47,068 nucleotides of DNA from Candidatus Harrisonbacteria bacterium (GCA_023255625.1 JAHFLF010000001.1:357120-404187), one strand, 5' to 3'; shown: positions 1 to 43,677, counted from the stretch's first letter. Program-made: numbers and translations. The notes: generated by a model from the sequence alone, not told the origin.

Positions 1-37
1 ACACAAGGCGCTCCTGAAAAAGTTAGGATTAAAATAG
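1..37 (+). CDS. rpsO: 3' end of 30S ribosomal protein S15 (partial)
   Basis: Frame 2 reads HKALLKKLGLK-TAG, like the S15 C-terminus (YxxLIxKLGLRK); lies upstream of pnp, as rpsO usually does. Confidence 0.75.
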   Translation, partial: HKALLKKLGLK

Positions 38-125
38 TTCATCAAGTTGTAAAGTTCATAAAGCGGTGGGAAGAGTAAGATTTTCCTATGACTTGATAAC
101 TTGATAAACTTTAAAACTTTCAACT
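36..125. repeat. Junction inverted repeat, family A (AAGTT../..AACTTT degenerate 8-9-mers)
   Basis: Left arm agttcatcaagttgtaaagttcataaag (36-63); right arm acttgataacttgataaactttaaaactttcaact (91-125), ending 6 nt before ATG 132. Confidence 0.65.
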
Positions 126-131
126 TACCCC

Positions 132-755
132 ATGAATCACCCCGAACAACGCGTTGGCATCTTCATCGATGTACAAAACCTGTACCACTCGGCGAAGAAT
201 TTATACAGCGCCCGCGTTAATTACAAAGAACTCATCAAGCATCTAGTTTCCGGCCGCAAGCTGGTGCGGGCGCTCGGCTATGTGATCAAGGCCGAAGCAG
301 CAGTAACGGCGGAGCACTTGGCAAAAATCGAGGCGGGTGAGATGGAGCAACGGGAAAAGACCACCAAAAGTGAGGCGAGTTTTTTTGAGGCGCTGAAACA
401 ATCCGGGATTGAGTTGCGGATGAAAGATATTCAAATTTTTCATGGTGGCGCAAAAAAAGCGGACTGGGATATCGGTATGGCGATTGATGCGGTCCGGATG
501 TCCGAGAGCTTGGATGTCATCGTGCTAGTAACCGGTGATGGCGACTTTATTCCGCTGATTGAGTACTTACGATCTGGCCGAGGCAAGGTAGTTGAGGTGG
601 CGGCGTTCTCGCGCAGCAGCAGCAGCAAACTCAAAGAGGCGGCCGACACCTTTGTCGCTTTAGATGAATTGCCGCGAGTTATTATGAAGCCGCTAGGAAT
701 GCGCCGCGGTCGCAAAAATAATGCAGACAATGGATATCTGCCGGCAGAGGAATAG
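132..755 (+). CDS. NYN domain protein (LabA/DUF88 family)
   Basis: IFIDVQNLY, KADWDIGMAID and LVTGDGDFIPL motifs. Confidence 0.9.
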   Translation: MNHPEQRVGIFIDVQNLYHSAKNLYSARVNYKELIKHLVSGRKLVRALGYVIKAEAAVTAEHLAKIEAGEMEQREKTTKSEASFFEALKQSGIELRMKDIQIFHGGAKKADWDIGMAIDAVRMSESLDVIVLVTGDGDFIPLIEYLRSGRGKVVEVAAFSRSSSSKLKEAADTFVALDELPRVIMKPLGMRRGRKNNADNGYLPAEE

Positions 756-759
756 AGAG

Positions 760-927
760 CTACGAATAACGAATTGGTTCACGAAAGTACGAATAAGGTA
801 TAAAATACATATAAGTCGAAAAATAATAATAATTAAAAAAATAAAAACGAATTACGAATAAAATACGAAAGCCGAAGAGATGCCGAGCCGCACTATTCGC
901 ACTTTCGTACAAAATTCGTAATTCGTT
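760..927. repeat. Junction inverted repeat, family B (TACGAAT/ATTCGTA)
   Basis: aacgaattacgaataaaatacgaaag (846-871) pairs with ctttcgtacaaaattcgtaattcgtt (902-927); extra left-arm units at 760-797; ends 7 nt before ATG 935. Confidence 0.75.
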
Positions 928-934
928 GATCATT

Positions 935-3040
935 ATGGATTTACACAAACAAGAATTCTCGTTAGATTACGCAGGCCGCACCTTAAAATTCGAGGTTTCC
1001 CGGCTGGCCGAACAGGCGAGCGCCGCTGTGCTTGGCACATATGGCGACTCAACCGTTTTGGCCACGGTGGTCATGGGCAAAAAAGATAAAGAAAGCAGTT
1101 ATTTCCCGCTGACGGTGGATTACGAAGAGCGATTTTATGCCGTCGGTAAAATTCTCGGCAGCCGCTTTGTGCGTCGCGAAGGAAAATCCAGCGAGGAGGC
1201 GGTTCTCTCCGGCCGAGTTATCGACCGGACTATTCGTCCACTCTTTGATGGGCGGATGCGCCGCGATGTTCAGGTGGTAGTTACTATTCTCTCGTATGAC
1301 GAGGATGATGACTTAGACTTTCTGGCGCTAAATACCGCCTCAACGGCCTTGGCTATTTCGGACATTCCCTGGGCTGGACCAGTTGCGGGCGTAAAAATAG
1401 TTAAAAAAGATGGCGCGCTGATAGTTAATCCAAAAAATTCGCAAATTGCGGAGGGGGCAACCTTTCAGATTTTCGCCGCCGGACCAAAAGACCGAATTAA
1501 TATGATCGAAGCCGATGGACTGGAGCCAGCCGAAGCCGAGGTGCTTACGGGTTTTGAGCAGGCACAAAAAGAGATAAATACGCTAATCGAATTCCAAAAC
1601 AGCATCGTCGCCAAAATTGGCAAACCAAAACAAAAAATTGTTTTGGCGGAGCTAGACCCGGCGGTCAAAGAAAAAATGGTCAGTTTTTTGAATGGAAAAT
1701 TAGAGCCGGCAATTTATGCTGCAACTAAAATGGAGCATGAGGCGAGTTTGGCAAAAATCGCCGCTGATCTGAATGAACATCTGCGCGCAGATGGAGTAGA
1801 CGAAAAAACAATTAAAGCGACAGGGGATTATCTGGAGAAGATGATCAGCGAGATTGTGCATAGCGGGGCGATCACCTCCGGCAAACGCCCGGACGGACGA
1901 GGGATTGAGGAGGTTCGCGAACTGCATGCCCAGGTCGGGCTGCTGAAACGCACGCACGGTTCTGGCTTATTTATACGAGGCAACACGCAGTCGCTGGCGC
2001 TAGCCACGATTGGCACGCCCGGCCAGGAGCAGACGATAGAAACTATGAGCTTCTCGGGCAAAAAACGCTTTATGTTGCACTACAACTTCCCGCAGTATTC
2101 AGTTGGGGAAACCGGCCCGTTCCGCGGCGCTGGTCGTCGCGAAATTGGCCATGGGGCGCTGGCAGAAAAAGCATTGCGAGGCATGATCCCGACTAAAGAG
2201 GAATTCCCGTATGCGGTCCGAGTTGTTTCCGAAATTACCTCATCAAACGGTTCGTCTTCAATGGCCTCGGTTTGTGGTGCCACGCTCGCGCTAATGGATG
2301 CGGGCGTACCAATCAAAAAACCGGTAGCCGGAATCGCGATGGGTCTTATGTCCGCCAATAGCGAAAAAGATTTTAAAGTGCTCACTGATTTGCAGGGGGC
2401 AGAGGATCACTATGGCGACATGGACTTTAAAGTTGCTGGCACTAAAGAGGGTATTACAGCAATTCAGTTGGATGTAAAAATCATGGGACTGACTATGGAG
2501 ATGGTGAAAACAACCTTGGAACAGGCCCGCAAAGCCAGATTGCAAATCCTAGAGGTGATCACTGCTGCTTTACCGGCGCCGCGCAAAGAGATCTCGCCGC
2601 TGGCACCGCTTATCATGAGCGTTAAAATTGACCCGGCGAAAATCGGTGCAGTTATCGGCAGTGGCGGAAAAACAATCAACGGCATTATTGAAAAAACCGG
2701 CTGCATTGCCATCGATATCGACGACGATGGCCTGGTCTATGTCTCCGGTAAAGATAAAGAGACGACAATGGCGGCCTACAACGAGGTGCTGGCGATCGTG
2801 AAAGACTATCAGGTTGGCGAAATAGTCGAGGGCAATATCGTCAAGATTTTGGAATTCGGGGCGATTGTTGAGCTAGATGCAAACCACGACGGCATGATCC
2901 ATGTCAGCGAACTCAAGGATGGATTCGTGAAAACCGTCGGCGAGGTGGTCAAACTTGGCGATCATGTCCGAGTCAAAGTTATGAAAGTTGAGCCAAATGG
3001 AAAAATTGGCTTGTCGCTAAAGGCGATGGGGAAAGTTTAG
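935..3040 (+). CDS. pnp: Polyribonucleotide nucleotidyltransferase (PNPase)
   Basis: FPLTVDYEER, RREIGHGALAE, SNGSSSMASVC, GDMDFKVAG motifs plus KH and S1 domains; ATG 935 preferred over TTG 926. Confidence 0.97.
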   Translation: MDLHKQEFSLDYAGRTLKFEVSRLAEQASAAVLGTYGDSTVLATVVMGKKDKESSYFPLTVDYEERFYAVGKILGSRFVRREGKSSEEAVLSGRVIDRTIRPLFDGRMRRDVQVVVTILSYDEDDDLDFLALNTASTALAISDIPWAGPVAGVKIVKKDGALIVNPKNSQIAEGATFQIFAAGPKDRINMIEADGLEPAEAEVLTGFEQAQKEINTLIEFQNSIVAKIGKPKQKIVLAELDPAVKEKMVSFLNGKLEPAIYAATKMEHEASLAKIAADLNEHLRADGVDEKTIKATGDYLEKMISEIVHSGAITSGKRPDGRGIEEVRELHAQVGLLKRTHGSGLFIRGNTQSLALATIGTPGQEQTIETMSFSGKKRFMLHYNFPQYSVGETGPFRGAGRREIGHGALAEKALRGMIPTKEEFPYAVRVVSEITSSNGSSSMASVCGATLALMDAGVPIKKPVAGIAMGLMSANSEKDFKVLTDLQGAEDHYGDMDFKVAGTKEGITAIQLDVKIMGLTMEMVKTTLEQARKARLQILEVITAALPAPRKEISPLAPLIMSVKIDPAKIGAVIGSGGKTINGIIEKTGCIAIDIDDDGLVYVSGKDKETTMAAYNEVLAIVKDYQVGEIVEGNIVKILEFGAIVELDANHDGMIHVSELKDGFVKTVGEVVKLGDHVRVKVMKVEPNGKIGLSLKAMGKV

Positions 3041-3059
3041 GGATTGTTTTGATGTATAC

Positions 3060-3201: not shown

Positions 3202-4293
3202 ATGGAACCGCAAAATATTCCGATAAACCCGCAGCCGCAAAAACCCTTGCCAGATGGGCAGGAACAGCAAATTAAAATGCTGCGCCAGAATATTGGCAGC
3301 GCATCGGCTTTAGCTTCACCAAATCAAACCGTGCAAGCAAGCCCAACGGAGCCCACTCTCAAGATCCCTGCAAAGCCCGTTTTTGACGCAGACGAACCGG
3401 TTTTTACCCCAAATACAGTTGCGCCACAGCCGAGCGCGCGCGTTTTCCAAACCGCGCCGGCACCTGCCACAACGGCAATAATACCGCCGGCTCCGCCTGT
3501 TGCTGCGCAAACAGCTGCGCCGTCAGTGGACGCGCTCATCGCCCAGAGGAAAAGCAAGGGCAAAATGAAAACAATAATTTTTGGAGTTGCTGGCCTTGTT
3601 GTAATTGCGGCGGCTGCATACTTTATCGTGCCCCTTTTTAAAACGGCTCCGGTAGAGCCAGCCCCAATTGCACAGCAGCCGGCCGGCTCGGTAACTCCGG
3701 TTGAACCAACACAACCCGCGAAAACTACTCCGGCAATTGTCTCTCTTTTCACCGTAGAGCCAGCCGCTCGGGGATTTGTAGCTGTGAATAAACCATATAC
3801 AGCAGCCGTAATCAATGAGGCGCTAACCAAAACAAAAGATCTGCAGGGAACGCGCGAGACAATGCTCATGAACTTTGATACACCCCAAAGAGCGCTGACC
3901 TTTGTGGAGATTATCGGTGCACTTGCGCCAAGCATTCAGGAAAAAACTGCTCAACTATTTTCCGGCGAGGTTAGCAGCTACACTTTTAGTGATGCGGCTG
4001 GCAACTGGCCTGGCTATGTGGCTAAACTCAAAATGGAGGCAAATGCCACAGATATTAAGGACTGGTTTAGTTCTCTGGAAAAAACATCGGAAAAGAAAAA
4101 CTTTTTCGTTACCGATCCTGGTACACTGCAGACCTTTAAAAATGGGTTGATTAACAACACTTATCCGGACCGTTATGCCCCCGGCACAACCGCCGGAGCA
4201 TCCTTCTCATACCTGATTTTACCGGAGAAGAAGCTGGTCTTAATCGGCACCTCGTTTGAGGGGATGAAGGATGCTTTGCGTCTTTTGCAGTAA
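3202..4293 (+). CDS. Hypothetical single-pass membrane protein, Pro-rich linker; paralog of next gene
   Basis: Hydrophobic IIFGVAGLVVIAAAAYFIV segment; C-terminus shared with 4386..5339; TGG-TATAGT extended -10 at about 3152-3160. Confidence 0.8.
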   Translation: MEPQNIPINPQPQKPLPDGQEQQIKMLRQNIGSASALASPNQTVQASPTEPTLKIPAKPVFDADEPVFTPNTVAPQPSARVFQTAPAPATTAIIPPAPPVAAQTAAPSVDALIAQRKSKGKMKTIIFGVAGLVVIAAAAYFIVPLFKTAPVEPAPIAQQPAGSVTPVEPTQPAKTTPAIVSLFTVEPAARGFVAVNKPYTAAVINEALTKTKDLQGTRETMLMNFDTPQRALTFVEIIGALAPSIQEKTAQLFSGEVSSYTFSDAAGNWPGYVAKLKMEANATDIKDWFSSLEKTSEKKNFFVTDPGTLQTFKNGLINNTYPDRYAPGTTAGASFSYLILPEKKLVLIGTSFEGMKDALRLLQ

Positions 4294-4381
4294 TCACTAA
4301 CATGCTAATCAAACCGAATATGCGAATAGAATTCGAAACCCATTAGCATATTAGTCCTCATTCGCGTGTTAGCGAATACTG
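4288..4381. repeat. Junction inverted repeat, family E (CAGTAATCGCTAAC..GTTAGCGATTACTG)
   Basis: Begins at the CAG-TAA of the upstream gene; ends gttagcgaatactg 4 nt before ATG 4386. Confidence 0.85.
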
Positions 4382-5339: not shown

Positions 5340-5437
5340 TTACAGCATTCGCTAACATGCGAATTAAGACTAATATGCTAATGGTACCAAGGTTTCTATT
5401 CGCGTATTCGTCTGGATTAGCGTGTTAGTGATTACTG
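5334..5437. repeat. Junction inverted repeat, family E, between convergent genes
   Basis: cagcattcgctaacatgcgaat...attagcgtgttagtgattactg; both flanking genes end in CAG-TAA. Confidence 0.85.
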
Positions 5438-6967: not shown

Positions 6968-6968
6968 A

Positions 6969-7064
6969 CAGTATTCACGAACATACTAATAAAACCGAAT
7001 ATACGAATGGGAAGGTCCGTATTTATTCGTGTATTAGTCCGCATTAGCGTGTTAGCGACTACTG
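6969..7064. repeat. Junction inverted repeat, family E
   Basis: cagtattcacgaacatactaat...attagcgtgttagcgactactg; overlaps the stop of the DksA-like gene and lies 1 nt from the comM ATG. Confidence 0.8.
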
Positions 7065-8593: not shown

Positions 8594-8706
8594 AGAGTAA
8601 TCGCGAATATGCGAATAGCTAATAATGCTAATACTACCACGAACCATCAGCGACAGCTTCTTGCCACATTCGCGATATTCGCTATTTGCGTATTCGCGAT
8701 TACTCT
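8594..8706. repeat. Junction inverted repeat, family E variant
   Basis: Perfect 16-bp termini agagtaatcgcgaata / tattcgcgattactct. Confidence 0.85.
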
Positions 8707-9772: not shown

Positions 9773-9920
9773 ATAGACGCTGCTAGAAGCATTAGATGCT
9801 GCTAGCGGCAGCTAGTGAATAAAAGATATGCTAGAATGCTTTATCTTACTCTTTCCAATCTTCTATAGCTGTCTCCTCCTAGCAGCATCTAGCAACATCT
9901 AGTACCTCTAGCAACTTCTA
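9773..9920. repeat. Junction inverted repeat, family C (TAGATGCTGC / CTAGCAGCAT 10-mers)
   Basis: Left tagacgctgctagaagcattagatgctgctagc; right cctagcagcatctagcaacatctagtacctctagcaacttcta, ending 2 nt before the pcrA ATG. Confidence 0.8.
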
Positions 9921-9922: not shown

Positions 9923-11761
9923 ATGTCCTCTCTCAACCCTGAACAAGAAAAGGCGGCCAATCACCCAGGTGGCCCTCTTCTCATGGCCGCGGGCGCCGGC
10001 TCCGGTAAAACCAAGGCGCTAACCAGTCGATTGAAACAGTTGATTAAGAGGGGAATACCGCCACACGAAATAGTTGCCATTACCTTTACAAATAAAGCCG
10101 CCCGCGAGATGCGCGAGCGAGTCTTCGGCAAAGACAATGCAGATCAAAAATGGCATCCGCGTTTCCCTGTATACGGGGAACCATTCATCGGAACATTTCA
10201 CTCTTTTGGCGCAAAAATTCTGAAGGAAGAGCCAGCGCTACTGGGGCGAACATCCGCATTCTCAATTTATGACGATGACGATTCTGGCTCACTCGTAAAA
10301 CGAATCCTGAAGGAGATGGGGCTGGCAAAAGATATCTGGAAACCCGCGGCGGTAGAGCAGAGAATTAGCAGTGTCAAAAGCGAGCTTCAAGATATTACGG
10401 AAATATTTGAGTCAGAAGACCGGCGCGACCAAATTTTTGCCGAGATTTTTAACCGTTACGAACGCACACTAAAACAAGACAATGCCTTTGACTTCGATGA
10501 TCTAATAGAAAAACCGGTGCGATTACTAAATGAGAACTTAGAACTTAGAACTAAGTACCAAGGACTATTTAGCCATATTCTGGTGGATGAATATCAGGAT
10601 ATTAACACAACGCAATATCAGTTGATCCGTCTTTTGGTTGAAAAGCACAAAAATATCTGTGTCGTCGGGGATGATTTCCAGAGTATTTTTGCGTTTCGAG
10701 GAGCGGACTTCCGAAATTTTTTGAATTTTGCGAAAGACTGGCCCGAAGCAACAATTATCAAGTTGGAACAAAATTATCGCTCGACCGCGAATATTATTAA
10801 TGCCGCAAATGCCGTCATTAAAAATAACACCGTCCAGACGCCGAAAAATTTGTGGACGGAAAATCCGGACGGAAGATTAATCAAAATCGTGGCCGCCGGA
10901 GACTGCGACAGCGAGGCGATTTGGGTTGCAAACGAGATCCGAGAACTAAGAAGTGAAAATAGGGATTTGAGCGTTGGGATATTGTATCGAACTAATGCGC
11001 AATCCCGCGCGATCGAACAAGCGCTCATTAGTGAAAATCTGGCCTACAAAATCTTCGGCGGGTTAAAATTCTACGATCGAAAGGAAATAAAAGATGTTCT
11101 AGCCGGATTGCGGCTGGCGAATAATCCGCTAGATACTGTCAGCGGCGAACGGCTACAGACCTCGCTGGGCAAGCGGATCGGTGCACCAACTGCAAAGATT
11201 ATGCAGTCGCAAGGAGGGCGGAATAAATCCATTGCGGAACTGATTGAAATTTTCATGAGGGAATCAAAGTATCAGGATTTTCTAGAAGAAAAATTCAATA
11301 ACCCGCAGGAGCGAATGGATAACATTAGTGAACTTGCTCGTTTTGCGGCGGAGTTTGAAAATCTGGGTGAATTTCTGGAGCGTGCCTCACTCCTGCAATC
11401 TGCCGATCGCCCCTCTTCCGGCCAACTAACCAGCCAACCAACTAACCAGCCAACCAATCCCGTTAACCTGATGACCATCCATATAGCGAAGGGGCTGGAA
11501 TTTGATTGCGTTTTTATCATCGGCGTCAATGAGGGGATGTTGCCACACGAACGGTCAGTAGAAAAACCGGAGCAGGTTGAAGAGGAACGCCGTTTAATGT
11601 ATGTTGCAATGACCAGAGCCCGCACAATGCTCTATATTCTCTTTCACTCCTTCCCCAGCCGCTTTCTCTATGAAATTCCCAAAGATCTGTGCAGCTTTGA
11701 TAGTTGCGACGGGCTGACCAATGGACTGCCGAGTGAGGATGAGATGTGGATAGAGAACTAG
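9923..11761 (+). CDS. pcrA: UvrD/PcrA family ATP-dependent DNA helicase (short form)
   Basis: AGAGSGKT, ILVDEYQD, VGDDFQSIF, LEQNYRST, LMTIHIAKGLEF, EEERRLMYVAMTRA. Confidence 0.93.
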   Translation: MSSLNPEQEKAANHPGGPLLMAAGAGSGKTKALTSRLKQLIKRGIPPHEIVAITFTNKAAREMRERVFGKDNADQKWHPRFPVYGEPFIGTFHSFGAKILKEEPALLGRTSAFSIYDDDDSGSLVKRILKEMGLAKDIWKPAAVEQRISSVKSELQDITEIFESEDRRDQIFAEIFNRYERTLKQDNAFDFDDLIEKPVRLLNENLELRTKYQGLFSHILVDEYQDINTTQYQLIRLLVEKHKNICVVGDDFQSIFAFRGADFRNFLNFAKDWPEATIIKLEQNYRSTANIINAANAVIKNNTVQTPKNLWTENPDGRLIKIVAAGDCDSEAIWVANEIRELRSENRDLSVGILYRTNAQSRAIEQALISENLAYKIFGGLKFYDRKEIKDVLAGLRLANNPLDTVSGERLQTSLGKRIGAPTAKIMQSQGGRNKSIAELIEIFMRESKYQDFLEEKFNNPQERMDNISELARFAAEFENLGEFLERASLLQSADRPSSGQLTSQPTNQPTNPVNLMTIHIAKGLEFDCVFIIGVNEGMLPHERSVEKPEQVEEERRLMYVAMTRARTMLYILFHSFPSRFLYEIPKDLCSFDSCDGLTNGLPSEDEMWIEN

Positions 11762-11853
11762 TTAGTTCGTTAGATAGTTAGTTGGTTAGTTAGTAAAAAC
11801 TAATATCAATCCTTTCTTACCAACTAACAAACTAACCAGCTAACCAATTAACT
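11759..11853. repeat. Junction inverted repeat, family D (GTTAGTTG / CAACTAAC)
   Basis: Left arm starts at the pcrA TAG; right arm ends 3 nt before the rsmA ATG. Confidence 0.85.
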
Positions 11854-11856: not shown

Positions 11857-12648
11857 ATGCCCCAACCCCTCGGTCAGCACTTCCTCAAAAACCAGAAAGC
11901 GATCACGCGGATTATTGACGCACTCAATTTGCAAAAGGGGGAGACGGTCATCGAAATCGGCCCGGGCCTGGGCGCGCTGACTATACCGCTGGTAGCGGAG
12001 TGCGATCGGCTTGACTGCAAACTGATTGTGATAGAGAAAGACGCAGAGTTAGCTGGTGAATTGGTTAGTTCGTTAGTTGGCAAGAGTGTGCAAATTATAG
12101 CCGGAGACGCCCTGCTTGAATTACCTAAACTAACTAACCAGCTAACCAAGCAACTAACTAACTATTCTCTTGTCGGGAACATCCCCTACTACATCACCGG
12201 TGCACTTCTGCGCACGATTGGTGAACTGCCAATCAAACCAAGAAAAACTGTGCTGATGATCCAAAAAGAAGTGGCGCAGCGGTTATGCGCCACACCCCCA
12301 AAAATGAATCTGCTAGCAGCTGCAACACAAATTTGGGCGGAGCCAAAAATTCTTTTCGAGTTGCCACCAACCGATTTCGACCCGCCACCAAAAGTTTGGT
12401 CAGCAGTTATCCAGCTAATCCCTCTAGCTGGCTCTAATCCCTCTAGCCCCTCTATACTGCTCGATTATTATCGAGCATTGCATATCATCTTCAAGCAGCC
12501 ACGCAAAACTCTTCTGAATAATTTGAGCGAAGAGATCGGTCGGGAACAGGCGCAAAAAATCATGCCGGGGCTTGCATTAGAACCGAATATTCGGCCCCAA
12601 AACCTCTCGATCGAGCAAATAATAGAAATAAGTCGCCTATTAGGTTAA
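11857..12648 (+). CDS. rsmA: 16S rRNA m6,2A dimethyltransferase
   Basis: LGQHFL, VIEIGPGLGALT, VGNIPYYIT, LMIQKEVA, FDPPPKV, QPRKTL. Confidence 0.95.
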   Translation: MPQPLGQHFLKNQKAITRIIDALNLQKGETVIEIGPGLGALTIPLVAECDRLDCKLIVIEKDAELAGELVSSLVGKSVQIIAGDALLELPKLTNQLTKQLTNYSLVGNIPYYITGALLRTIGELPIKPRKTVLMIQKEVAQRLCATPPKMNLLAAATQIWAEPKILFELPPTDFDPPPKVWSAVIQLIPLAGSNPSSPSILLDYYRALHIIFKQPRKTLLNNLSEEIGREQAQKIMPGLALEPNIRPQNLSIEQIIEISRLLG

Positions 12649-18811: not shown

Positions 18812-19447
18812 ATGCCTGAATTTGACACAAAAAATACTGCGACAAACCAGCAGGAACCAGATAAAAATAATCCTGGAAAATCACCTTGGCCCTTTGACAA
18901 TCTGCCCGTTGAAATACATGACTGGTTGATTTCCGACGAGGTAGACACATTTGTCAGGGATCTAACGGCTAAAAATACGGATTCTATTCCAGATAAAAGG
19001 GCACTGGGCTTTACAATAACCTGGCTGGCAATCGGAAAAATTAATGCTAATCAATTTGTCGGTTCGCTAATCAATGCCTTTAAAATCTCTCCAGAGATTG
19101 CGAAAACGCTTGCTAAAGAAGTCAGGGATGGGGTTTTAAAACCCATCAAATTCGCAATGCGCTCCAAACTCGGAATAGACATTGAGCATGTTACTGATGA
19201 GCCGGGAGTAATCGCGAATGGTTTAATAATGGACATACGAAAACCAGTGGCGGCTGCGCCCACTCCTACCGCGCGAGTAATCCCAATGAGCCGACCCGTG
19301 GCGGGACAGTCCACGGTTAGTCGGTCGACAGTTAGTCAGCCAGGAGGTGGACAGCCGCAAATCAAAGCTGGCGTGATACAACCGACAAAGCCGATTGGTT
19401 TGAGTGAGGTTGTGCCGCAGCCGCCTGGAGGAACGGGGAACGGTTAG
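18812..19447 (+). CDS. Hypothetical protein
   Basis: ORF in operon context; Pro-rich tail contains an in-frame family F repeat. Confidence 0.7.
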   Translation: MPEFDTKNTATNQQEPDKNNPGKSPWPFDNLPVEIHDWLISDEVDTFVRDLTAKNTDSIPDKRALGFTITWLAIGKINANQFVGSLINAFKISPEIAKTLAKEVRDGVLKPIKFAMRSKLGIDIEHVTDEPGVIANGLIMDIRKPVAAAPTPTARVIPMSRPVAGQSTVSRSTVSQPGGGQPQIKAGVIQPTKPIGLSEVVPQPPGGTGNG

Positions 19448-26362: not shown

Positions 26363-26459
26363 TTAGTTCGTTAGCTGGTTAGTTGGTTAGTTGGTGAAAG
26401 GCAGGTGACAAATTTTGTTGCCTCGCCAACTAACCAACTAACTAAGCAACCAACTAACC
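26353..26459. repeat. Junction inverted repeat, family D, between convergent genes
   Basis: Left gttagttcgttagctggttagttgg; right ccaactaaccaactaactaagcaaccaactaacc. Confidence 0.85.
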
Positions 26460-26465: not shown

Positions 26466-26894
26466 TTAGATCGGTTTAATCACTACACCCCGATCCTTGC
26501 CCTCGCCAATACTTTCTGTCTTAACATCCGGCCGCATCGAAAGCTCTACATGAACCAGCCGCCGTTCATAGGCGTTCATTGCCGGCAACCGAACCTCTTC
26601 TTTGTTAGTAACTACTTTTTGCGCAGCGGCTTTAGCAATTTCTATTATCAACTTCTCGCGCTCCTTCCGGTAGTTGTTAATATCAACTACATACGATACC
26701 TCTCCGGTTTTGCGAGCCAGCAAAGCGGCAAAATATTTGAGTTCCTTAACTAGTTCCGGCAGCTGTGCCGTAAACCACTCATCCTCATCGGTGGTTACGC
26801 TCACGCGACGCCCCGGCTCATCAATCTCCACGGTTGCATTGCGCAGTTGGAGGAAACCGATAATTTTTTTTAATTTTTCTGGGAGGGTCTCCAT
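26466..26894 (-). CDS. Jag/KhpB-like R3H domain protein (short)
   Basis: VVDINNYRKERE..LPAMNAYERRLVH..TESIGEG; lies downstream of yidC. Confidence 0.85.
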   Translation of the reverse strand: METLPEKLKKIIGFLQLRNATVEIDEPGRRVSVTTDEDEWFTAQLPELVKELKYFAALLARKTGEVSYVVDINNYRKEREKLIIEIAKAAAQKVVTNKEEVRLPAMNAYERRLVHVELSMRPDVKTESIGEGKDRGVVIKPI

Positions 26895-26935
26895 ACAGTA
26901 CAGTAATCGCTAACATGCAAATTAAGACTAATACG

Positions 26936-27682
26936 CTAATGAGATCCTGAAACTATTCGCTTATTCGGCACATTCACATTATCCGACTCTCGCCGACTTA
27001 TCTGCTTATTAATGCTGTACTGCTGGAATATAGAGAAAATCGCGGTAGTTGTCCAGTAAAGTCCAATAGCGGCCGCGAGTTTCGGCAAGATCACTAGTGT
27101 TAGTATCGGAGCCAGATAGGCCATATATTTTGTCGCTGCTCCGCCGGGGGCGTTTGCACCGCCCCGAGCCGCTGCTTGTTTGGCCAGCATGTGGCTCTGC
27201 AAAAAATTGGCGATCGTGGCAATAATAACGATTATCCAGCTTGGGTGGCTAACATCGAGCACACCGAGAAAAAGGGAATTGATGCTCTCCGGCGCCGGGA
27301 TAAAAGAATACAAATCCTTCAAACTTTCGACCGTAACACCAGTCAAAAAAATCCGATATACTGCGAAAAGAATCGGCAACTGAATTAAAGTATAAAAAAT
27401 CGAGGAGAACGGGTTGGTTTGATGCTCTTTGTAAAGCGCCATCATCTGCTGGGCCTGTTTCTGCTTATCCTGTTTGTGTTCCTGCTGGATCCGCTTCATC
27501 TCCGGCTGCATCCGCTGCATGACCATCTGACTCTTGATGCCTTTATAGAAAATCGGATAGAGTACGAGCCGGATGGCGATTGTGAGGGCGATAATTGCCA
27601 GCCCTAAGTCGCCAAAGGTAACATAGTTGTAAAAGACGATTAGAAGATTGAAAAGCGGCTGGATTAGGATGGTATGGAACAT
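26936..27682 (-). CDS. yidC: Membrane protein insertase YidC/Oxa1
   Basis: GLAIIALTIAIRLVLYP, MQPEMKRIQ, LYKEHQTNP, IQLPI, LYWTT..FSIFQQ. Confidence 0.95.
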   Translation of the reverse strand: MFHTILIQPLFNLLIVFYNYVTFGDLGLAIIALTIAIRLVLYPIFYKGIKSQMVMQRMQPEMKRIQQEHKQDKQKQAQQMMALYKEHQTNPFSSIFYTLIQLPILFAVYRIFLTGVTVESLKDLYSFIPAPESINSLFLGVLDVSHPSWIIVIIATIANFLQSHMLAKQAAARGGANAPGGAATKYMAYLAPILTLVILPKLAAAIGLYWTTTAIFSIFQQYSINKQISRRESDNVNVPNKRIVSGSH

Positions 27683-27727
27683 GATGAGTAATCGCAAAGA
27701 CGCAGTAGCGAATAATGCTAATAAATC

Positions 27728-28039
27728 TTATCCTATTAAATCACGCAATTCATCTATAATAGCATGTTTATCGGCATCGCGCGCGGGCGGCTGCACGATC
27801 AAAATTAGATCAAATTTTGCCCCAGAGCGGACATAACCGGCCAGAGCATCATAGATAAATCTTTTAATAACATTGCGCCGGCTGGCTAGCTTGTGAACGC
27901 GCAAACCGATAACAACGCCAACCCTTGGATGCTCTGCCCCAGCCGGCAAAAATTTAATCCAACAATACCTGCCCCGAATTACCCGGCCTCCTGCCCGGAG
28001 CGTTGTTTGAATCTTGAGTCGATACTTTTTAGCCAACAT
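27728..28039 (-). CDS. rnpA: Ribonuclease P protein component
   Basis: MLAKKYRL, RVGVVIG..KLASRRNVIKR; synteny with rpmH and yidC. Confidence 0.9.
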   Translation of the reverse strand: MLAKKYRLKIQTTLRAGGRVIRGRYCWIKFLPAGAEHPRVGVVIGLRVHKLASRRNVIKRFIYDALAGYVRSGAKFDLILIVQPPARDADKHAIIDELRDLIG

Positions 28040-28052
28040 GTATTCCGGTAAA

Positions 28053-28157
28053 CGGTTAGTCAGTCGACAGTTAGTCAGCAGGAGGGAACGGCTTGATTGT
28101 CAGGAGTGGGTTCCTGAATTAAACCGGCTAACCGTCGACCGACTAACTGATAACTGA
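28053..28157. repeat. Junction inverted repeat, family F (GTTAGTCAGTCGAC)
   Basis: cggttagtcagtcgacagttagtcagc / ggctaaccgtcgaccgactaactgataactga, between rpmH and rnpA. Confidence 0.75.
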
Positions 28158-28292
28158 TTATACCGAGAGTTTCTTGCGGCCCTTCGCGCGCCGGCGCTTA
28201 AGAACGCGCCGCCCGTACAGAGTCCGACTACGCTTCAGAAAACCATGTGTTCGTGCTCGCTTGCGTTTCTTGGGTTGGTAAGTTTTGCTCAT
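28158..28292 (-). CDS. rpmH: 50S ribosomal protein L34 (missed by ORF track, 44 aa)
   Basis: Translates to [44 protein letters not shown]. Confidence 0.97.
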
Positions 28293-28425
28293 TGCATCTA
28301 TGATGGCCCGGATTGCTTTAATGGCCGTTAGTTTTGATACGATGCATAATACAAGGAAAGAAATGAAAAAGCAAATCAGAAAAATTTAGATTCCTATTGC
28401 TCTTTGTCTGGCAGTTGCAGTACAC

Positions 28426-28493
28426 TTATCCACACCCCGTCCACACTTTGTTCGAAAATCGGGGTTTGACGGCTGGCCGCAGCCAGCTAAACT
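28426..28493 (+). promoter_or_regulatory. DnaA box and putative dnaA promoter
   Basis: TTATCCACA at 28426-28434; TTGACG (28466)-16 nt-TAAACT (28488). Confidence 0.6.
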
Positions 28494-28499
28494 GAAAAC

Positions 28500-28586
28500 C
28501 AGTCCTCGCTACTTCGCTAATAAAAAAGTGGAAGCCGATAAAAAATATTTGTATATTAGTCTTAATTAGCATGTTAGCGAATACTG
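28500..28586. repeat. Junction inverted repeat, family E, in the dnaA leader
   Basis: Degenerate left arm cagtcctcgctacttcgctaat; right arm attagcatgttagcgaatactg ends 1 nt before ATG 28588. Confidence 0.7.
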
Positions 28587-28587
28587 T

Positions 28588-30317: not shown

Positions 30318-31430
30318 ATGAAACTGATTATTCTCCGTAGTAATTTAAAAGAGGTCTTGGCTTCAGTAGAGAGGGCTGTAACTGATAGCCCAACATTGCC
30401 GATTTTAAAAAATATCCTGCTTAAAGTAGATACGCGGCTAACTGTGCAGGCGACTAACCTTGAAATTGGCGTAACCGCGACTACCAGCGCCAAGATAACC
30501 GAGCAGGGGATTCTTTCGGTTCCCTTCGCCCCGCTTTATAGCATTATTAACAACAGTGTCAGCGACCGGATCACTTTAGAGTCTAAGGAGCTCTCTCTGA
30601 CTGTTGCCACTGATAACTATGCGGCCAAGATCCAGGGGAGTAGTCCAGATGAATTCCCAATCATCCCCAAGCTCCTCGACGAGACAAACACGATTGAGGT
30701 GGCCGGCGATGTTTTTAAAACAGCACTCACGCAGGTGCTCCCGTCCGCCGCCTCAAATGATTTTAAGCCGGAGATGAATAGCGTCTTGCTTATCGTTTCC
30801 GGCGGTTCGCTCAAGCTGGTCGCTACCGACGGCTTCCGGCTCGCCGAAAAGACGCTTTCTAGCAATGCATACGGCACGACGATCCATAGCGAGCTGCGGG
30901 CGCTAATCCCTCTCAAAACGGCCCAGGAGGTTTTACGCATCTTCCCCGGCCACGACCAGCTCACTGTCGCGCTAGATAGCAATCAGGTGCTTTTCCGGTC
31001 TAAGGATACGGCGCTTATCAGCCGATTGATTGATGGAAATTATCCGGAGTACGGGGCTATCGTGCCAAAGAACTTAACTACCGAGTTAGTAGTCGAGCGA
31101 GATGAGCTGATCGGCGCGATTAAGCTGGTTAGTAATTTTTCCGGCAAGACTAGCGACCTCACGCTTAAGGTTAGCGACGAGCAGAAGGCGATTGAGGTCT
31201 ACGCCTCCAGCCAGACGATCGGAGAAAACTCTTACCAGGTGTCGCTTAAGAAAAAGAAGCTGGAGGGGATAAGCAAAGTTTCTTTCAACTGGCGCTATCT
31301 GCTGGACGCTGTGCGGGTGATGCCCGATCCGATTATCACACTTGGGTTTACCGGCGAAAGCCGCCCGATGATGATCAAAGGTACAAGCGACGACTCTGTT
31401 TTCTGCATCGTGATGCCGATTCAGCAATAA
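30318..31430 (+). CDS. dnaN: DNA polymerase III beta clamp
   Basis: LPILKNILL, ATNLE, VATDGFRLA, SRLIDGNYPEY, IVMPI. Confidence 0.97.
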   Translation: MKLIILRSNLKEVLASVERAVTDSPTLPILKNILLKVDTRLTVQATNLEIGVTATTSAKITEQGILSVPFAPLYSIINNSVSDRITLESKELSLTVATDNYAAKIQGSSPDEFPIIPKLLDETNTIEVAGDVFKTALTQVLPSAASNDFKPEMNSVLLIVSGGSLKLVATDGFRLAEKTLSSNAYGTTIHSELRALIPLKTAQEVLRIFPGHDQLTVALDSNQVLFRSKDTALISRLIDGNYPEYGAIVPKNLTTELVVERDELIGAIKLVSNFSGKTSDLTLKVSDEQKAIEVYASSQTIGENSYQVSLKKKKLEGISKVSFNWRYLLDAVRVMPDPIITLGFTGESRPMMIKGTSDDSVFCIVMPIQQ

Positions 31431-31547
31431 CCGCGGGGGGATTTCCGCAGAACGACACTCTCGCAGGCCGAAGAGGCCGAGAGCAGGCGCTGCGCGGCCC
31501 GCGCGCAGATAGCCGGTGTCGTTCTGCGGAAATCCCCCCGCGGTTAT
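31427..31547. repeat. 121-bp element with perfect 32-bp terminal inverted repeats (MITE/REP-like)
   Basis: ataaccgcggggggatttccgcagaacgacac (31427-31458) / exact reverse complement (31516-31547); two small internal hairpins. Confidence 0.85.
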
Positions 31548-34917: not shown

Positions 34918-35009
34918 TTGGTTAGTTGGTTGCTTAGTTAGTTGGTTAGTTAGCTAGGGCAGCCCAGAGAAATTGTATCTACAAGTTAACTAACTAACAA
35001 ACTAACTAA
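34918..35009. repeat. Junction inverted repeat, family D
   Basis: ggttagttggttgcttagttagttgg / taactaactaacaaactaacta; overlaps the yebC stop and abuts the ruvC start. Confidence 0.8.
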
Positions 35010-35560
35010 GTAACGATTGTATTTGTTACTACCCGTTGTACATCCTCGTGTTCCTCAAACCCCGCGATTATCGCGGCGAGAAGATTTTGTGAGCTGGCAG
35101 AGACTGGTTGAGGGAATTTTGCTTTGTAGTGTCGAGTTGGCACGCCGTCTTGAATTTCGTCGACAAGCTCAAAGGCCCAAAGAGTGCTTCCGGTATCGGC
35201 CGGCTTAATGCCAAGCTCCCCGGCGAGCGTTCTCATTTCTTGCATCGTACGATTGCTGCTGTCAGTAATACCCTCAACAATCATTAAAAGACCTTCGGGC
35301 CCGATACATTCGAAAACAAATTCTTTCAAATCCTTTTGTTCTTTGGCCCGATTTATGGCGCGTTCTATATTTTCATTCGGCACACTAGACGCACGAGCTG
35401 TTTCAACCAGCGTTCGCAGTCGCGGATTTTCTTCCGGTTTCGGATTTGTTTTTGCGGCGATAGCGATTGCCCCCAATATTTTTGTAAACAAAATCGCCCG
35501 CTTCTGATCCTTAGCGCCCTTCTGATGTTTGATTTGCGACCATTTGTTGTGACCGGACAT
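35006..35560 (-). CDS. yebC: YebC/PmpR family protein (short form)
   Basis: MSGHNKWSQIKHQKG, NPRLR, IERAI, EEHEDVQRVVTN. Confidence 0.93.
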   Translation of the reverse strand: MSGHNKWSQIKHQKGAKDQKRAILFTKILGAIAIAAKTNPKPEENPRLRTLVETARASSVPNENIERAINRAKEQKDLKEFVFECIGPEGLLMIVEGITDSSNRTMQEMRTLAGELGIKPADTGSTLWAFELVDEIQDGVPTRHYKAKFPQPVSASSQNLLAAIIAGFEEHEDVQRVVTNTIVT

Positions 35561-35562: not shown

Positions 35563-35683
35563 GCAGAAGTTGCTAGAGGAGATTAGATGCTGCTAGCACG
35601 AATAAATAGAGAGTTGGCCATTTTGTCTGTGGTATCCTTATGCTAACAGCTTCTAGCGACCTCTAGCAACCTCTAACGCCTCT
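35563..35683. repeat. Junction inverted repeat, family C, between divergent genes
   Basis: agaagttgctagaggagattagatgctgctagc / ctagcgacctctagcaacctctaacgcctct; each arm abuts an ATG. Confidence 0.75.
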
Positions 35684-37394: not shown

Positions 37395-37923
37395 CCACTA
37401 AGCTGGCGATTTTTGCATAAATTAAAAGGCGTCGCGGATTCGCCATAGGGAGCAGTAAAAGGTATCCCTGCTCATCTTGGCGAATCCGCGACGCCTATGC
37501 AAAAAAACCGCCTAGTAGTGGGCAAAATTCGGACCCGCGAGAATTATCTCTATCCACAGCTTATTCAGTATGGTGATTTTGCCTATTTCCGGATGGTATA
37601 CTAAATATCCGATTGTTGTTGGAGGGCTTACTGCTCTTGACAGATTAGAGATTTGGTGCTATATTCTGATTAAGAATTGTGCGGCAAAAGCAGCTGCTAT
37701 GTCGCTTGCTCTTTGTTTTCACGATAGTGGCTTAAATACGATCGCTCTTTTAAAACCGTCTGGTAGTGGGCAAAATGGGATGGCTCATCGATTTGGACAA
37801 CTTGGCTCCGGCTGGGGTGCTCCTCGATTTCATTCTTGGTTTCTTTTTAGATTTTCTAAAGAAGAACTTTTTATCAGCTTCCTCCCCAGGTGCTGATTTT
37901 GCCCACTACTAGGCGGTTTTTTT
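37395..37923. repeat. Structured intergenic region: nested hairpin plus 28-bp perfect inverted repeat
   Basis: 19-bp arms 37427-37445/37478-37496; 28-bp arms 37501-37528/37896-37923; a third copy at 37752-37776. Confidence 0.8.
37637..37665 (+). promoter_or_regulatory. Sigma70-type promoter
   Basis: TTGACA-17 nt-TATATT with a TG extension. Confidence 0.7.
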
Positions 37924-39018: not shown

Positions 39019-39093
39019 AATTTCTAATTTTCAATTTAGAAATTTCATAATTTAAGACATTGTTTGAAAATTGAGAATTAGAAATTGAAAATT
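39019..39093. repeat. Junction inverted repeat, family G (AATTTTC/GAAAATT heptamers)
   Basis: aatttctaattttcaattt / aaattgagaattagaaattgaaaatt, directly abutting ATG 39094. Confidence 0.8.
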
Positions 39094-39689: not shown

Positions 39690-39696
39690 ACTAGAT

Positions 39697-40158: not shown

Positions 40159-40179
40159 TCAGTGATGCATAAAAGAGAA

Positions 40180-40556: not shown

Positions 40557-40586
40557 TGGATCACCTCCTTAGCTTCTTTTATAGCG

Positions 40587-40679
40587 CAGTATTCGCGAAC
40601 ACGCAAATATGCGCTAATATGCTAATGGAATCGGAACACTATTCGCATATTCGATTTATTAGCATGTTAGCGATTACTG
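40587..40679. repeat. Junction inverted repeat, family E
   Basis: cagtattcgcgaacacgc..gcatgttagcgattactg; 1 nt before ATG 40681. Confidence 0.85.
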
Positions 40680-40680
40680 T

Positions 40681-41553: not shown

Positions 41554-41573
41554 CGGTAACAGAAAATTCTGTG

Positions 41574-41582
41574 TGGTATAAT
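41574..41582 (+). promoter_or_regulatory. Extended -10 promoter, probably leaderless transcript
   Basis: TGG-TATAAT ending 6 nt before ATG 41589. Confidence 0.65.
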
Positions 41583-41588
41583 TTTAGC

Positions 41589-42494
41589 ATGGCTATTCGA
41601 AAACAGTTGAAGTTTTTAGGGTTTTTTAAAAAACCGGAGGTTCAGTTTTTTTTAATAATTTTAGCGCCGCTTACCGCGTTTTTTCTAGTCAGCTATCAAA
41701 ATGTTTCAGAGAAGGAGCAAGAATTTATTTTAATCGGCGTGGCTACATTAGTCGCCATGGTGTTTTTCCAAACACTTTATTCCGGCTATGAGCATTATCG
41801 TTTGAATAAACAGGAGCAGGCCTTTTTGAGCATTTCTGCTCATCAGATGCGCACACCGCTCACCGCTGTCCGTTGGCTGATGTCGGAGATAACTGCAAAT
41901 GATAACAAGCCGGAGGAGCGGAAAGATTTAGGGCGAGTTGCCGAAATAGCCATCACAAAATTGAACAACATTATTGATTCATTTTCAGCGCTGGCCAGAA
42001 TCGGCGATGCGCAGCTAGCGGAATTAAGCGAACGATTGGATATTTGCGATTTAATTGAAAAGGCAGTTACTACGGCCGAGCCGGTTTCCAGACAATATGG
42101 AGTCGCAGTTTTTTTCGAGGGGCCGTGTGAGGATCTTTATGTTAAGGTAGATCCGGTTAAGCTGGAAATTGTTTTTTCAAATTTAATTAACAACGGAGTC
42201 AAATACAATCATCGCGGCGGGATGGTTACTGTCGGGGCCAGACGCGTCGAAGGTGGTAAAAAAATTGAAGTAATGGTTCGTGATACCGGTATTGGAATTC
42301 CTGAAGCCGAGCAGGGGCGGATCTTTGGGCAGTTTTTCCGGGGCAAGCAGGCGCAGCAGATTAATCTAATCGGCGTCGGATTAGGATTGTATATGACCAA
42401 GCAGATAATTGAGCAGCACCGCGGGCAGATTTGGTTTGAATCAGCGCCCGGGAAGGGCACGACCTTTCATTTCACCTTACCCAGCAGTCGCTAA
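41589..42494 (+). CDS. Sensor histidine kinase (2 TM, HisKA + HATPase)
   Basis: SAHQMRTPLT H-box, NLINNGVKY, DTGIGI, GVGLGL, GKGTTF. Confidence 0.93.
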   Translation: MAIRKQLKFLGFFKKPEVQFFLIILAPLTAFFLVSYQNVSEKEQEFILIGVATLVAMVFFQTLYSGYEHYRLNKQEQAFLSISAHQMRTPLTAVRWLMSEITANDNKPEERKDLGRVAEIAITKLNNIIDSFSALARIGDAQLAELSERLDICDLIEKAVTTAEPVSRQYGVAVFFEGPCEDLYVKVDPVKLEIVFSNLINNGVKYNHRGGMVTVGARRVEGGKKIEVMVRDTGIGIPEAEQGRIFGQFFRGKQAQQINLIGVGLGLYMTKQIIEQHRGQIWFESAPGKGTTFHFTLPSSR

Positions 42495-42600
42495 CACGCC
42501 ACAGTAATCACTAACACGCTAATACAGACGAATACGCGAATAAAATCCGGACTCTTCTTTATTAGTATATTAGTCTTAATTAGCATTTTAGCGATTACTG
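42485..42600. repeat. Junction inverted repeat, family E
   Basis: cagtaatcactaacacgctaat (42502)..ttagcgattactg; the final G is the first base of the mutM GTG; partial extra left arm at 42485. Confidence 0.85.
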
Positions 42601-43553
42601 TGCCCGAACTTCCCGAAGTTGAAACTGTGGTTCGTGATTTACGCCGGAAAGTTGTCGGCCAGACAATTACTGCTGTTTGGACTGACTGGCCGAAACTAAT
42701 TAAGGATTTTGAGAATCAGAGTCGGCTGCATGTTTCTAAAAAAGCAGTCGCACATTTTCAGAAGCATCTTCCGGGCTTACGGATTGAACGGGTAGAGAGG
42801 CGAGCGAAAAATATTTTGATTTATCTTTCCGGCGGGCATTTGATGCTCGTACATCAAAAGATGACCGGGCATTTTCTCGTCGGTAAATGGCAGATAGAGA
42901 ATGGCAAAGCAGTTGGTATTTCGCCGCGTGAGATTGTTGAGGATTCGTATAACCATCATGTGCATTTAATTTTCTCTCTATCGCCGGTTTCTTCTTCCCA
43001 ACTAACTAAGCAACCAACTAACCAGGCAACTTATCCTATGCAGCTTGGGCTTTCAGATGTCCGAAAGTTTGCCAAAGTTTTGTTCGGTAAGCAGGAACAG
43101 ATTGAATCATTGCCCGAGCTTGCTAATCTCGGCCCGGACGCGCTCGACCCACAGCTGACCATTTCGCAATTTCGCGAAATTGCGAAATGCCAAACCCGGC
43201 CAATCAAGCAGGTCTTGATGGACCCGTTTGTAATTGCCGGGATCGGCAATATTTACTCTGACGATATTTTGTGGCGGGCCAAAGTGCATCCAAAAACACG
43301 CGCTGCGGTGCTCAAGCCGGCGCAGCTTTCGGCTATTTATAAATCAATGAGGGTAGTTTTGACTAAGGCCGTGCGGCTGCGCGGTACCTCAACCAGCGAC
43401 TTCCGCGATACCGACGGCAAAGAGGGCGGCTATACAGAATATCGGCTGGTGTATGGGCGCAAAGGCCAGCCGTGCCAGCGCTGCAAAACTCCGATTGAGC
43501 GGATGGTGATCGGTGGCCGCAGTGCGCATTTTTGTCCGAAGTGCCAACAGTAA
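42600..43553 (+). CDS. mutM: Formamidopyrimidine-DNA glycosylase
   Basis: MPELPEVE, RRAKNIL, HQKMTG, AGIGNIYSDD, C-terminal zinc finger. Confidence 0.96.
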   Translation: MPELPEVETVVRDLRRKVVGQTITAVWTDWPKLIKDFENQSRLHVSKKAVAHFQKHLPGLRIERVERRAKNILIYLSGGHLMLVHQKMTGHFLVGKWQIENGKAVGISPREIVEDSYNHHVHLIFSLSPVSSSQLTKQPTNQATYPMQLGLSDVRKFAKVLFGKQEQIESLPELANLGPDALDPQLTISQFREIAKCQTRPIKQVLMDPFVIAGIGNIYSDDILWRAKVHPKTRAAVLKPAQLSAIYKSMRVVLTKAVRLRGTSTSDFRDTDGKEGGYTEYRLVYGRKGQPCQRCKTPIERMVIGGRSAHFCPKCQQ

Positions 43554-43677
43554 TCGCCAACATGCGAATTAAGACTAATACGCTAATCGTTGCCTTGCGT
43601 GAAACTTTGCGCGGTAGTACTCTTGGAGTATTGTTTTTATTAGCATATTAGTTATATTAGCGTGTTCGTGAATACTG
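43548..43677. repeat. Junction inverted repeat, family E
   Basis: Starts with the mutM CAG-TAA; ends gtgttcgtgaatactg 3 nt before the pyrG ATG. Confidence 0.85.

Follow-up and report, generated by a model that had tools for sequence, protein, structure and literature searches.

Low-complexity hairpins at stop/start junctions of a Harrisonbacteria genome are probably gene-less members of a class of cassettes resembling rRNA intervening sequences

Why should gene boundaries of a small bacterial genome be occupied by hairpins of low sequence complexity that adjoin the stop codon of one gene and the start codon of the next? The question is raised by a stretch of 47,068 bp (G000:C8:357120-404187; "the window", by which we mean the whole stretch) from the genome of a Candidatus Harrisonbacteria bacterium (G000; 931,659 bp in 12 contigs, G+C content about 0.48, 94.9% complete), in which we found about 20 inverted repeats or single arms made of degenerate units of 7–10 nt. 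An earlier reading of the sequence alone (the sequence-only reading) had described them as stems that staple a stop codon to the next start codon, and had considered either a device for translational coupling or RNase III processing, or else selfish, non-autonomous elements tolerated only where they fold out. Our analysis indicates that these junction hairpins are probably members, lacking an open reading frame (ORF) and comparable to miniature inverted-repeat transposable elements (MITEs), of a class of cassettes similar to the intervening sequences (IVSs) of ribosomal RNA (rRNA) genes, and that folding out of the transcript is probably what has allowed them to persist. They share their arms with gene-bearing cassettes and with insertions in rRNA genes, and their copies are dispersed and lineage-specific.

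Inverted repeats were located with a gapped, einverted-like scan using our own script (match 3, mismatch -4, gap -8, score of at least 45, span of at most 300), and genes with our own ORF-based calls (889 genes); both these calls and the assignments to families are heuristics. The scan returned 309 inverted repeats genome-wide, compared with 2 in a genome shuffled in blocks of 100 nt, and 241 of the 309 were at most 15% coding according to our calls. By a threshold on our own repeat criterion, 107 belong to a low-complexity class, leaving 202 other hairpins, among whose classes are ordinary G+C-rich, terminator-like ones. Families were defined by average-linkage clustering on shared 6-mers, single linkage having been dropped as it merged 255 repeats into one group. 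The largest is family G (AATTTYY units, period 7), with 28 copies genome-wide. Family E has 18 copies by clustering, while a BLAST search with a family E query gave 34 matches in the same genome; families D (GTTAGTT units), A (units of about 9 nt, AAGTTnATn), B (ACGAA units, ACGAAnnT) and C (GCTAGAnGnT, period 10) have 15, 11, 8 and 5 copies, respectively, and two further low-complexity families have 5 copies each. The arms measure 20–45 nt, are 75–89% complementary and have the character of long-stem terminal inverted repeats. Single-strand folds of seven window elements gave z-scores from -3.3 to -8.2 relative to dinucleotide shuffles. Scan and folds together bear out the inverted repeats of families A–G that the sequence-only reading had placed at these gene boundaries, except that three of its ten family E sites turned out to be single arms (Table 1). 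A search of the window against Rfam matched no family, and ARAGORN found no tRNA in it.

The evidence that carries our interpretation came from a pattern search with the terminal 14-mer of family E, among the matches of which were termini lying about 0.5 kb apart. These led to cassettes in which the arms enclose a small gene. Three such cassettes, missing from the list of the sequence-only reading, are present in the window (Table 1), and for these three the gene families were confirmed by profiles. The gene of the D cassette matches PF05635 (4.5e-36) and TIGR02436 (5.9e-36) and is spanned by an inverted repeat of score 91; that of the C cassette also matches PF05635 (3.7e-37; spanning score 65); that of the E cassette matches TIGR04256 (2.5e-25) and PF13366 (PDDEXK_3, 1.7e-23; spanning score 62). 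The last has two tandem left arms (from 20296 and from 20359) and a right arm at 20807–20857. A tblastn search of the genome revealed nine genes for four-helix-bundle (23S_rRNA_IVP) or GxxExxY proteins, and all nine lie between spanning low-complexity arms, which belong to families A, B (twice), C, D, E (twice) and two further types; four-helix-bundle genes between such arms number four in this genome. Genomes other than G000 were examined as fetched stretches. In one of them, G001, a D cassette with D-type arms occupies the same site. In virB4, the C cassette occupies precisely the spacer that separates the stop codon of the N-terminal part from the start codon of the C-terminal part, and that is 1 nt long in G001 and somewhat longer in two further relatives (G002 and G004). 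We rejected the idea that this cassette had split virB4, since the gene already consists of two adjacent ORFs in these three genomes, as it does in the window (20901–21581, N-terminal part, and 22009–23721, ATPase part). An apparent 8-bp flanking repeat (7/8 identical) beside the E cassette was not borne out in other copies.

The association between these genes and inverted arms extends far beyond one genome. Within the order, an adjacent spanning inverted repeat with a score of at least 36 was found at 28 of 29 GxxExxY loci and, equally, at 28 of 29 four-helix-bundle loci. For bacteria as a whole we fetched 80 loci with an alignment of 21 four-helix-bundle proteins, of which 77 had enough flanking sequence. 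In this sample, representing at least 12 phyla, a spanning repeat of score at least 36 was present in 68 of 77 loci, as opposed to 8 of 77 when the right flanks were exchanged; it occurred in 21 of 22 loci from the candidate phyla radiation (CPR) and in 47 of 55 from outside it. Arms of tandem 7–8 nt units were seen in Acidobacteriota, Bacteroidota, Clostridia, Planctomycetota, Cyanobacteria and others. The type of unit appears, from these comparisons, to follow the type of cargo: arms with C[GT]AAT units (at least two on both sides) flank 16 of 28 GxxExxY cassettes, compared with none of the 28 four-helix-bundle cassettes from the order and none of the 67 from all bacteria (Fisher p about 1e-6), a difference that has to be read with the reservation that the motif was defined post hoc and that related genomes are not independent.

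The same families have also entered rRNA genes. The 16S gene spans 1911 nt and carries, in hairpin loops, insertions of 140 nt (a G-family hairpin) and 115 nt (an A-family hairpin), with a third A-family repeat further 3'. The 23S gene, which lies on contig C1 and does not adjoin the 16S gene, spans 4618 nt. At model position about 583, in a region that we take to be the helix-25 IVS site, it contains a G-family hairpin whose stem is extended; insertions of 116 nt at about 1762 and 121 nt at about 1892 lie where A-family repeats occur. Insertion at helix tips, a defining feature of IVSs, is thus seen for the G and A copies in both genes; the junction hairpins lie outside rRNA, so that we call them IVS-like rather than strict IVSs.

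Comparison with relatives shows how irregularly the junction hairpins are distributed. G001 and G002 belong to the same genus (84–90% protein identity for DnaA and PyrG) and are syntenic over the window. Among 30 junctions shared with G001, a hairpin is present at 12 in the window, at 4 in G001 and at 1 in both; the corresponding numbers are 12, 2 and 2 for the 24 junctions shared with G002, and 7, 2 and 2 for the 15 shared with G004. Orthologous spacers that are empty of a hairpin measure -4 to 43 nt. At a few junctions the relatives hold a hairpin of another unit type: the yebC/pilB junction of G002 has a different hairpin (GATAGTT), the junction upstream of mutM in the same genome also has one of a different unit type, and the ruvC/yebC junction of G004 has an E-like element. 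The NYN/pnp junction of G001 and G002 carries a shorter TACGAA hairpin, and at the site of the D hairpin at 26362–26458 an ordinary terminator-like hairpin is found in G001. The junction hairpins are dispensable and lineage-specific. Among 151 genomes of the order, 25 contain the terminal 14-mer of family E, 12 of them in at least four copies, and it is multi-copy in several families of that order (32 copies in G000, 28 in G004, 24 in G124 and 21 in G039, with 1 in G001 and 0 in G002; a reversed-pattern control was near 0). Contigs assembled from four DNA runs, all from a single study, were seen to end or join where the repeats lie; we read this as behaviour of the assembly graph, and the contigs provided no usable presence/absence variants. 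Families, cargo-bearing relatives, rRNA copies and empty spacers all support the second suggestion of the sequence-only reading, that of selfish non-autonomous elements tolerated only where they fold out.

The position of the hairpins relative to stop and start codons is nevertheless peculiar and requires explanation. Most low-complexity repeats are intergenic (91 of 107), occupying 91 of 877 intergenic junctions. Their outer ends lie at a median distance of 2.5 nt from the stop and 6 nt from the start (27 and 96 nt in the 202 other hairpins), so that the claim that arms adjoin stop and start codons holds genome-wide. The true starts of mutM (V-PELPEV), ruvC, yebC, pyrG and the 5'-3' exonuclease gene are supported by conserved N-termini, judged against what we take to be the consensus N-termini of these proteins. 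It had also been claimed that genes at hairpins have no Shine-Dalgarno (SD) motif. This is true but not special to them, as none of the window's genes, whether at a hairpin or not, is preceded by an SD motif, a genome-wide trait that fits the 3' end of the 16S rRNA (L009 1440–1560), where the CCUCC anti-SD sequence is missing. According to the accessible text of one survey, the anti-SD motif is present in only 48% of the Parcubacteria covered (PMC9297842). The arms are rich in stop codons, with stops in 2.0–2.2 of the three frames compared with 1.74 in shuffled arms and 0.74–0.94 in the other hairpins, so that any frame running into an arm terminates at once. The stapled geometry can be explained on this basis, because elements that insert into spacers of about 0–40 nt, and whose stop-rich arms end reading frames, would come to lie against the codons on both sides.

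An adaptive device in the mRNA, where the stem joins a stop to the next start and lets a terminating ribosome start again, or melt the stem, in an organism without SD pairing, would account for these short distances, for the mutM start inside an arm, for the stable stems and for a 16S rRNA that lacks the anti-SD. We nevertheless consider it very unlikely. The hairpins are found in 72 co-directional, 11 divergent and 8 convergent junctions, compared with 670, 103 and 104 among all junctions; low-complexity hairpin contexts simply follow availability, without enrichment between stop and start. Arm mismatches compatible with G:U pairing, which had been put forward in favour of such a device, do exist, but in the 72 co-directional cases those of the sense strand (109) are not in excess over the mirror-image class compatible on the antisense strand only (130; transversions 238; binomial p = 0.2). 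Arms pair hardly better in cis than in trans (mean score 59 vs 54 in family E and 59 vs 53 in family G), even though the cis pairs had been selected for score, and the best partner is a copy's own arm in only 3 of 18 family E and 7 of 28 family G copies, as opposed to 14 of 15 in a comparison class with copy-specific stems subjected to the same test; this cis/trans test found no copy-specific compensation in the large families E and G. Moreover, the same genes abut or overlap without a hairpin in G001 and G002, and members of these families are also found where no stop/start pair is involved, namely within rRNA genes and flanking small genes. With neither G:U bias nor compensation nor stop-to-start enrichment, a result that fits the refuting conditions stated in the sequence-only reading itself, the translational-coupling staple is not supported. 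Somewhat less improbable, though still unlikely, is that selfish insertions have been co-opted, with RNase III cleavage of the stem being the normal maturation of operon transcripts into short-leader mRNAs in a lineage without SD motifs. The genome does encode RNase III (238.7 bits, G000:C8:119922-120578), rRNA IVS stems of the same architecture are described as RNase III substrates in the accessible part of PMC4990558, the arms end a few nucleotides from starts, single arms prefer to face starts, and 91 of 877 junctions hold a hairpin. Against this stand the closest relatives, which express the same genes hairpin-free, and the missing G:U or compensatory signal; an occupancy of about 10% of the junctions is too low for a general maturation system.

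Two further explanations concern the origin and the role of the arms. If the arms arose in place, by replication slippage that grows short units around a small palindrome, they would be microsatellite-like structures and not copies of an element. This would be consistent with their degenerate tandem 7–10 nt units, with the variable unit number and with relatives that have different unit types at one junction, such as that upstream of mutM. Slippage is highly improbable as the main process, however, since family E copies from many loci can be aligned along the entire 40-nt arm, at 72–82% identity and with an unchanged order of units, since one and the same 14-mer terminus has multiple copies in genomes from several of the order's families, and since arms co-occur with specific cargo genes across phyla. 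It is least probable of all that the hairpins are unusual transcription terminators or promoters. They are intergenic, and one weak sigma-70-like match was seen in the right arm of family G, yet scans for sigma-70 promoters and for terminators detected no consistent site in the arms and promoter-like matches are not concentrated there. The arms are A+T-rich without a T-run and do not qualify as intrinsic terminators; convergent spacers account for just 8 of 91 low-complexity hairpins but for 39 of 166 other hairpins, which are enriched there; and copies occur inside rRNA genes.

We favour an origin of the junction hairpins from IVS-type cassettes. A full cassette would consist of a pair of inverted arms, each with 3–6 degenerate units of 7–10 nt, around a small gene for either a four-helix-bundle protein (23S_rRNA_IVP, also S23p) or a GxxExxY nuclease of the PD-(D/E)XK type, and the junction hairpins would have retained the arms with a short, variable loop while the gene has gone. 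Such elements would be selfish, spreading within and between genomes and surviving only where a fold-back stem does little harm, namely in rRNA at helix tips and, in compact operons, within stop/start spacers of a few nucleotides. Judging from rRNA IVSs, this genome's RNase III probably cuts the co-transcribed stems, and the cistrons would thereby be separated and given short leaders in an organism without an anti-SD.

Several of our own results weigh against this interpretation. Searches of G000 for PF01797 (Y1_Tnp), PF07282 (TnpB-type), PF13358 (DDE_3) and PF01609 (DDE_Tnp_1) gave no match, with a cut-off of E <= 0.01 for PF01797 and in a genome that is 94.9% complete and of a kind in which repeats are often left unassembled; the only transposase-type match is one to PF00665 (rve), on the 3.3-kb contig C5. 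There is no clear signal of target-site duplication, the longest direct repeat in the flanks having a mean of 2.77 nt (2.36 ± 0.20 after permutation) and never exceeding 6 nt. Family G, with its 28 copies, has no cargo-bearing copy in G000, and the loops of family E vary while the arms are conserved, which is not predicted by simple copying from one master element and is not accounted for by plain neutral decay either. The residual spacer beside hairpins sums to about 8 nt, compared with a median of 39 nt at element-free co-directional junctions, so that insertion or survival is biased toward the tightest junctions and a benefit is possible. Finally, single arms face starts in 42 cases and stops in 18 (25 vs 6 within 12 nt; sums over families E, D, B, C and I), a preference for starts that neutral decay does not predict, and the comparison of arm units between cargo types carries the reservations given with it.

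Several known types of element invite comparison. The junction hairpins are multi-copy, dispersed and bounded by terminal inverted repeats, as MITEs are, and in this respect counterparts are the Correia or NEMIS elements of Neisseria, which are dispersed non-autonomous inverted-repeat MITEs near gene starts, are co-transcribed, and have stems reported to be RNase III substrates. They differ from MITEs in that their cargo-bearing relatives encode four-helix-bundle or GxxExxY proteins and no known transposase, and from Correia elements in having neither a clear target-site duplication signal nor a known transposase partner, in their tandem-unit arms, and in the presence of many unrelated families in a genome of 0.93 Mb. 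REPINs are extragenic inverted doublets of a motif of roughly 40 nt with a variable spacer, accompanied by singlets and served by RAYT transposases. Inverted doublets of about this arm length, variable spacers and singlets recur here, but no Y1 or RAYT gene (PF01797) was found in G000, and the arms are arrays of tandem units rather than single small palindromes. Rickettsia palindromic elements (RPEs) are selfish palindromes that also occur in frame inside genes; to our knowledge they carry no gene and have no copies in rRNA. The likeness to RPEs lies in GxxExxY cassettes found in frame inside RecG, SecA and RtcB in relatives of G000.

In these essential proteins of other genomes of the order, the GxxExxY/PDDEXK_3 domain is located between the DEAD and Helicase_C domains of RecG (L044 and L045; 888 aa), inside SecA_DEAD (L043) and inside RtcB (L047), and the arm-like repeats that flank it are translated. 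The arrangement resembles an RPE-like or intein-like selfish insertion. In the window itself, rsmA (11857–12648) has D-like arms in frame on either side of its conserved GDAL motif (12038–12171), and the right-arm peptide LTNQLTKQLTN is retained in G001 and G004.

The closest parallel is the rRNA IVS. As far as the accessible text of PMC4990558 goes, that of Coxiella is a 428-nt selfish element with terminal inverted repeats in a 28-bp stem, an S23p ORF and tandem heptamers upstream of that ORF, RNase III cuts its stem midway, and the function and origin of IVSs as well as the role of S23p are called unclear. The elements described here share with this IVS the optional four-helix-bundle ORF in the loop, the tandem units beside the ORF, the insertion at helix tips and, probably, the selfish character. 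They are unlike it in that most copies lie between protein-coding genes (the 91 junctions) or, in relatives, in frame in genes, that they form multi-copy families, and that a second cargo, the GxxExxY nuclease, comes with an arm type of its own. For CPR rRNA genes, Tsurumaki et al. (2024, PMC11270868), in the part of the paper accessible to us, report many short, ORF-less, non-intron insertions, "probably" IVSs, and some 23S_rRNA_IVP ORFs. These insertions resemble ours in organism group, in being short (<200 bp) and ORF-less and in lying at stem-loops; in that same part they are confined to rRNA genes and uncharacterised, and tandem-unit arms, families or intergenic copies are not reported. 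Genes for 23S_rRNA_IVP proteins wedged in cas operons are mentioned in the accessible part of PMC3936711. A literature search that covered few subscription journals found no description of the tandem-unit arms, of ORF-less intergenic families or of the rule linking cargo and arm. The statement that no such system had been described therefore applies to the intergenic form and its arms, but not to the rRNA form, which has long been known as the IVS.

A wider proposal, which we put forward tentatively and regard as a good deal less probable than the origin of the junction hairpins given above, is that four-helix-bundle (S23p or Avd-like) and GxxExxY genes are residents of pan-bacterial, previously undescribed mobile cassettes with hairpin ends, that each cassette's protein binds or cleaves at the units of its arms, and that removal of the stem by RNase III makes insertion nearly silent, the rRNA IVSs being the special case that was noticed first. 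Such recognition of its arm units by the protein of a cassette would account for the match between unit type and cargo type, and nearly silent insertion would allow cassettes, as well as derivatives of them that lack an ORF, to settle in rRNA loops, in stop/start gaps and even in frame in essential genes. In CPR lineages without SD motifs, stem cleavage may additionally be used to produce short-leader mRNAs. The cross-phyla rule that these genes lie between inverted tandem-unit arms, with an arm type specific to the cargo, bears on the origin of IVSs and on the role of the S23p proteins, and it turns the vague label of a selfish element into testable statements on recognition of arms by the protein and on silencing by RNase III. 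There are practical consequences for annotation, as arms cut or extend reading frames and assemblies break at them, and it is now possible to place the short "uncharacterised insertions" of CPR rRNA in families.

Table 1. Low-complexity hairpins, single arms and cargo-bearing cassettes in the window, with positions counted from its first nucleotide.
Element	Position	Strand	Context
Family A hairpin	36–125	.	Between an upstream ORF and the NYN gene; weaker inverted repeat, fold z -3.3
Family B hairpin (ACGAAnnT units)	752–936	.	NYN/pnp junction
Family E hairpin	4288–4381	.	Upstream stop TAA inside terminal CAGTAATC; fold z -6.4
Family E hairpin	5343–5437	.	Flanked by two convergent genes
Family E hairpin, full copy by BLAST	6968–7064	.	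Orthologous spacer 20 nt in G001, 26 nt in G002
Family E hairpin, GAGTAATC variant	8594–8706	.	From the inverted-repeat scan
Family C hairpin (GCTAGAnGnT, period 10)	9774–9920	.	Divergent spacer; end 2 nt before pcrA ATG
Family D hairpin (GTTAGTT units)	11760–11853	.	pcrA/rsmA junction; z -5.8; orthologous spacer 11 nt in G001, 43 nt in G002
Cargo-bearing D cassette	19443–19905	+	D arms 19443–19477 and 19871–19905; four-helix-bundle gene 19518–19880
Cargo-bearing E cassette	20296–20857	+	GxxExxY / PD-(D/E)XK gene about 20403–20822
Cargo-bearing C cassette	21579–21999	+	C arms 21579–21602 and 21976–21999; four-helix-bundle gene 21620–22000
Family D hairpin	26362–26458	.	Between convergent genes; z -8.2
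Single E arm	26895–26940	-	Outer end at ATG of gene 26466–26894
Single E arm	27686–27727	-	Outer end 3 nt from yidC-like start
Family F hairpin (GTTAGTCAG units)	28055–28147	.	rnpA/rpmH junction
Single E arm	28545–28587	+	Ends at dnaA ATG
Family D hairpin	34929–35014	.	yebC/ruvC junction; orthologous spacer 0 nt in G001, 5 nt in G002
Family C hairpin	35565–35674	.	Divergent yebC / pilB-like spacer
Family G hairpin (AATTTYY, period 7)	39019–39086	.	z -4.5; the orthologues in G001 overlap by 4 nt, those in G002 abut
Family E hairpin	40587–40679	.	End 1 nt before exonuclease ATG
Family E hairpin	42500–42602	.	mutM GTG start (42600) inside right arm; z -7.0
Family E hairpin, 51-nt loop	43546–43679	.	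End 1 nt before pyrG ATG

The single E arms within 27686–28587, inverted relative to each other, bracket rnpA-rpmH together with the region upstream of dnaA. They enclose about 860 nt and may represent two half elements or the ends of one element with a very large "loop".

Other repeats in the genome are of a different nature. A second class of intergenic hairpins, represented in the window at 37427–37496 and 31427–31547 and genome-wide by cluster 94 (15 copies) and clusters 33, 31 and 35, combines near-perfect outer stems that are specific to each copy with a conserved inner part, which contains either a 12-nt loop or a core of 56–61 nt. In 14 of 15 copies the own arm is the best partner. The pattern suggests insertion into pre-existing hairpins, or a structured RNA. 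Unlike the low-complexity hairpins, a 25-nt inverted repeat around about 120 nt at 37752–37920 has kept its sequence almost unchanged in G001, G002 and G004. Genome cluster 96 (10 copies, e.g. G000:C8:39809, 178931 and 259333) is a composite repeat of about 100 nt, which contains two small internal palindromes and is unrelated to the low-complexity families, and a perfect palindrome of 30–34 nt is found in about ten intergenic copies (G000:C1:33669 and 42952; C4:8946 and 16309; C8:3112 and 17881; and others).

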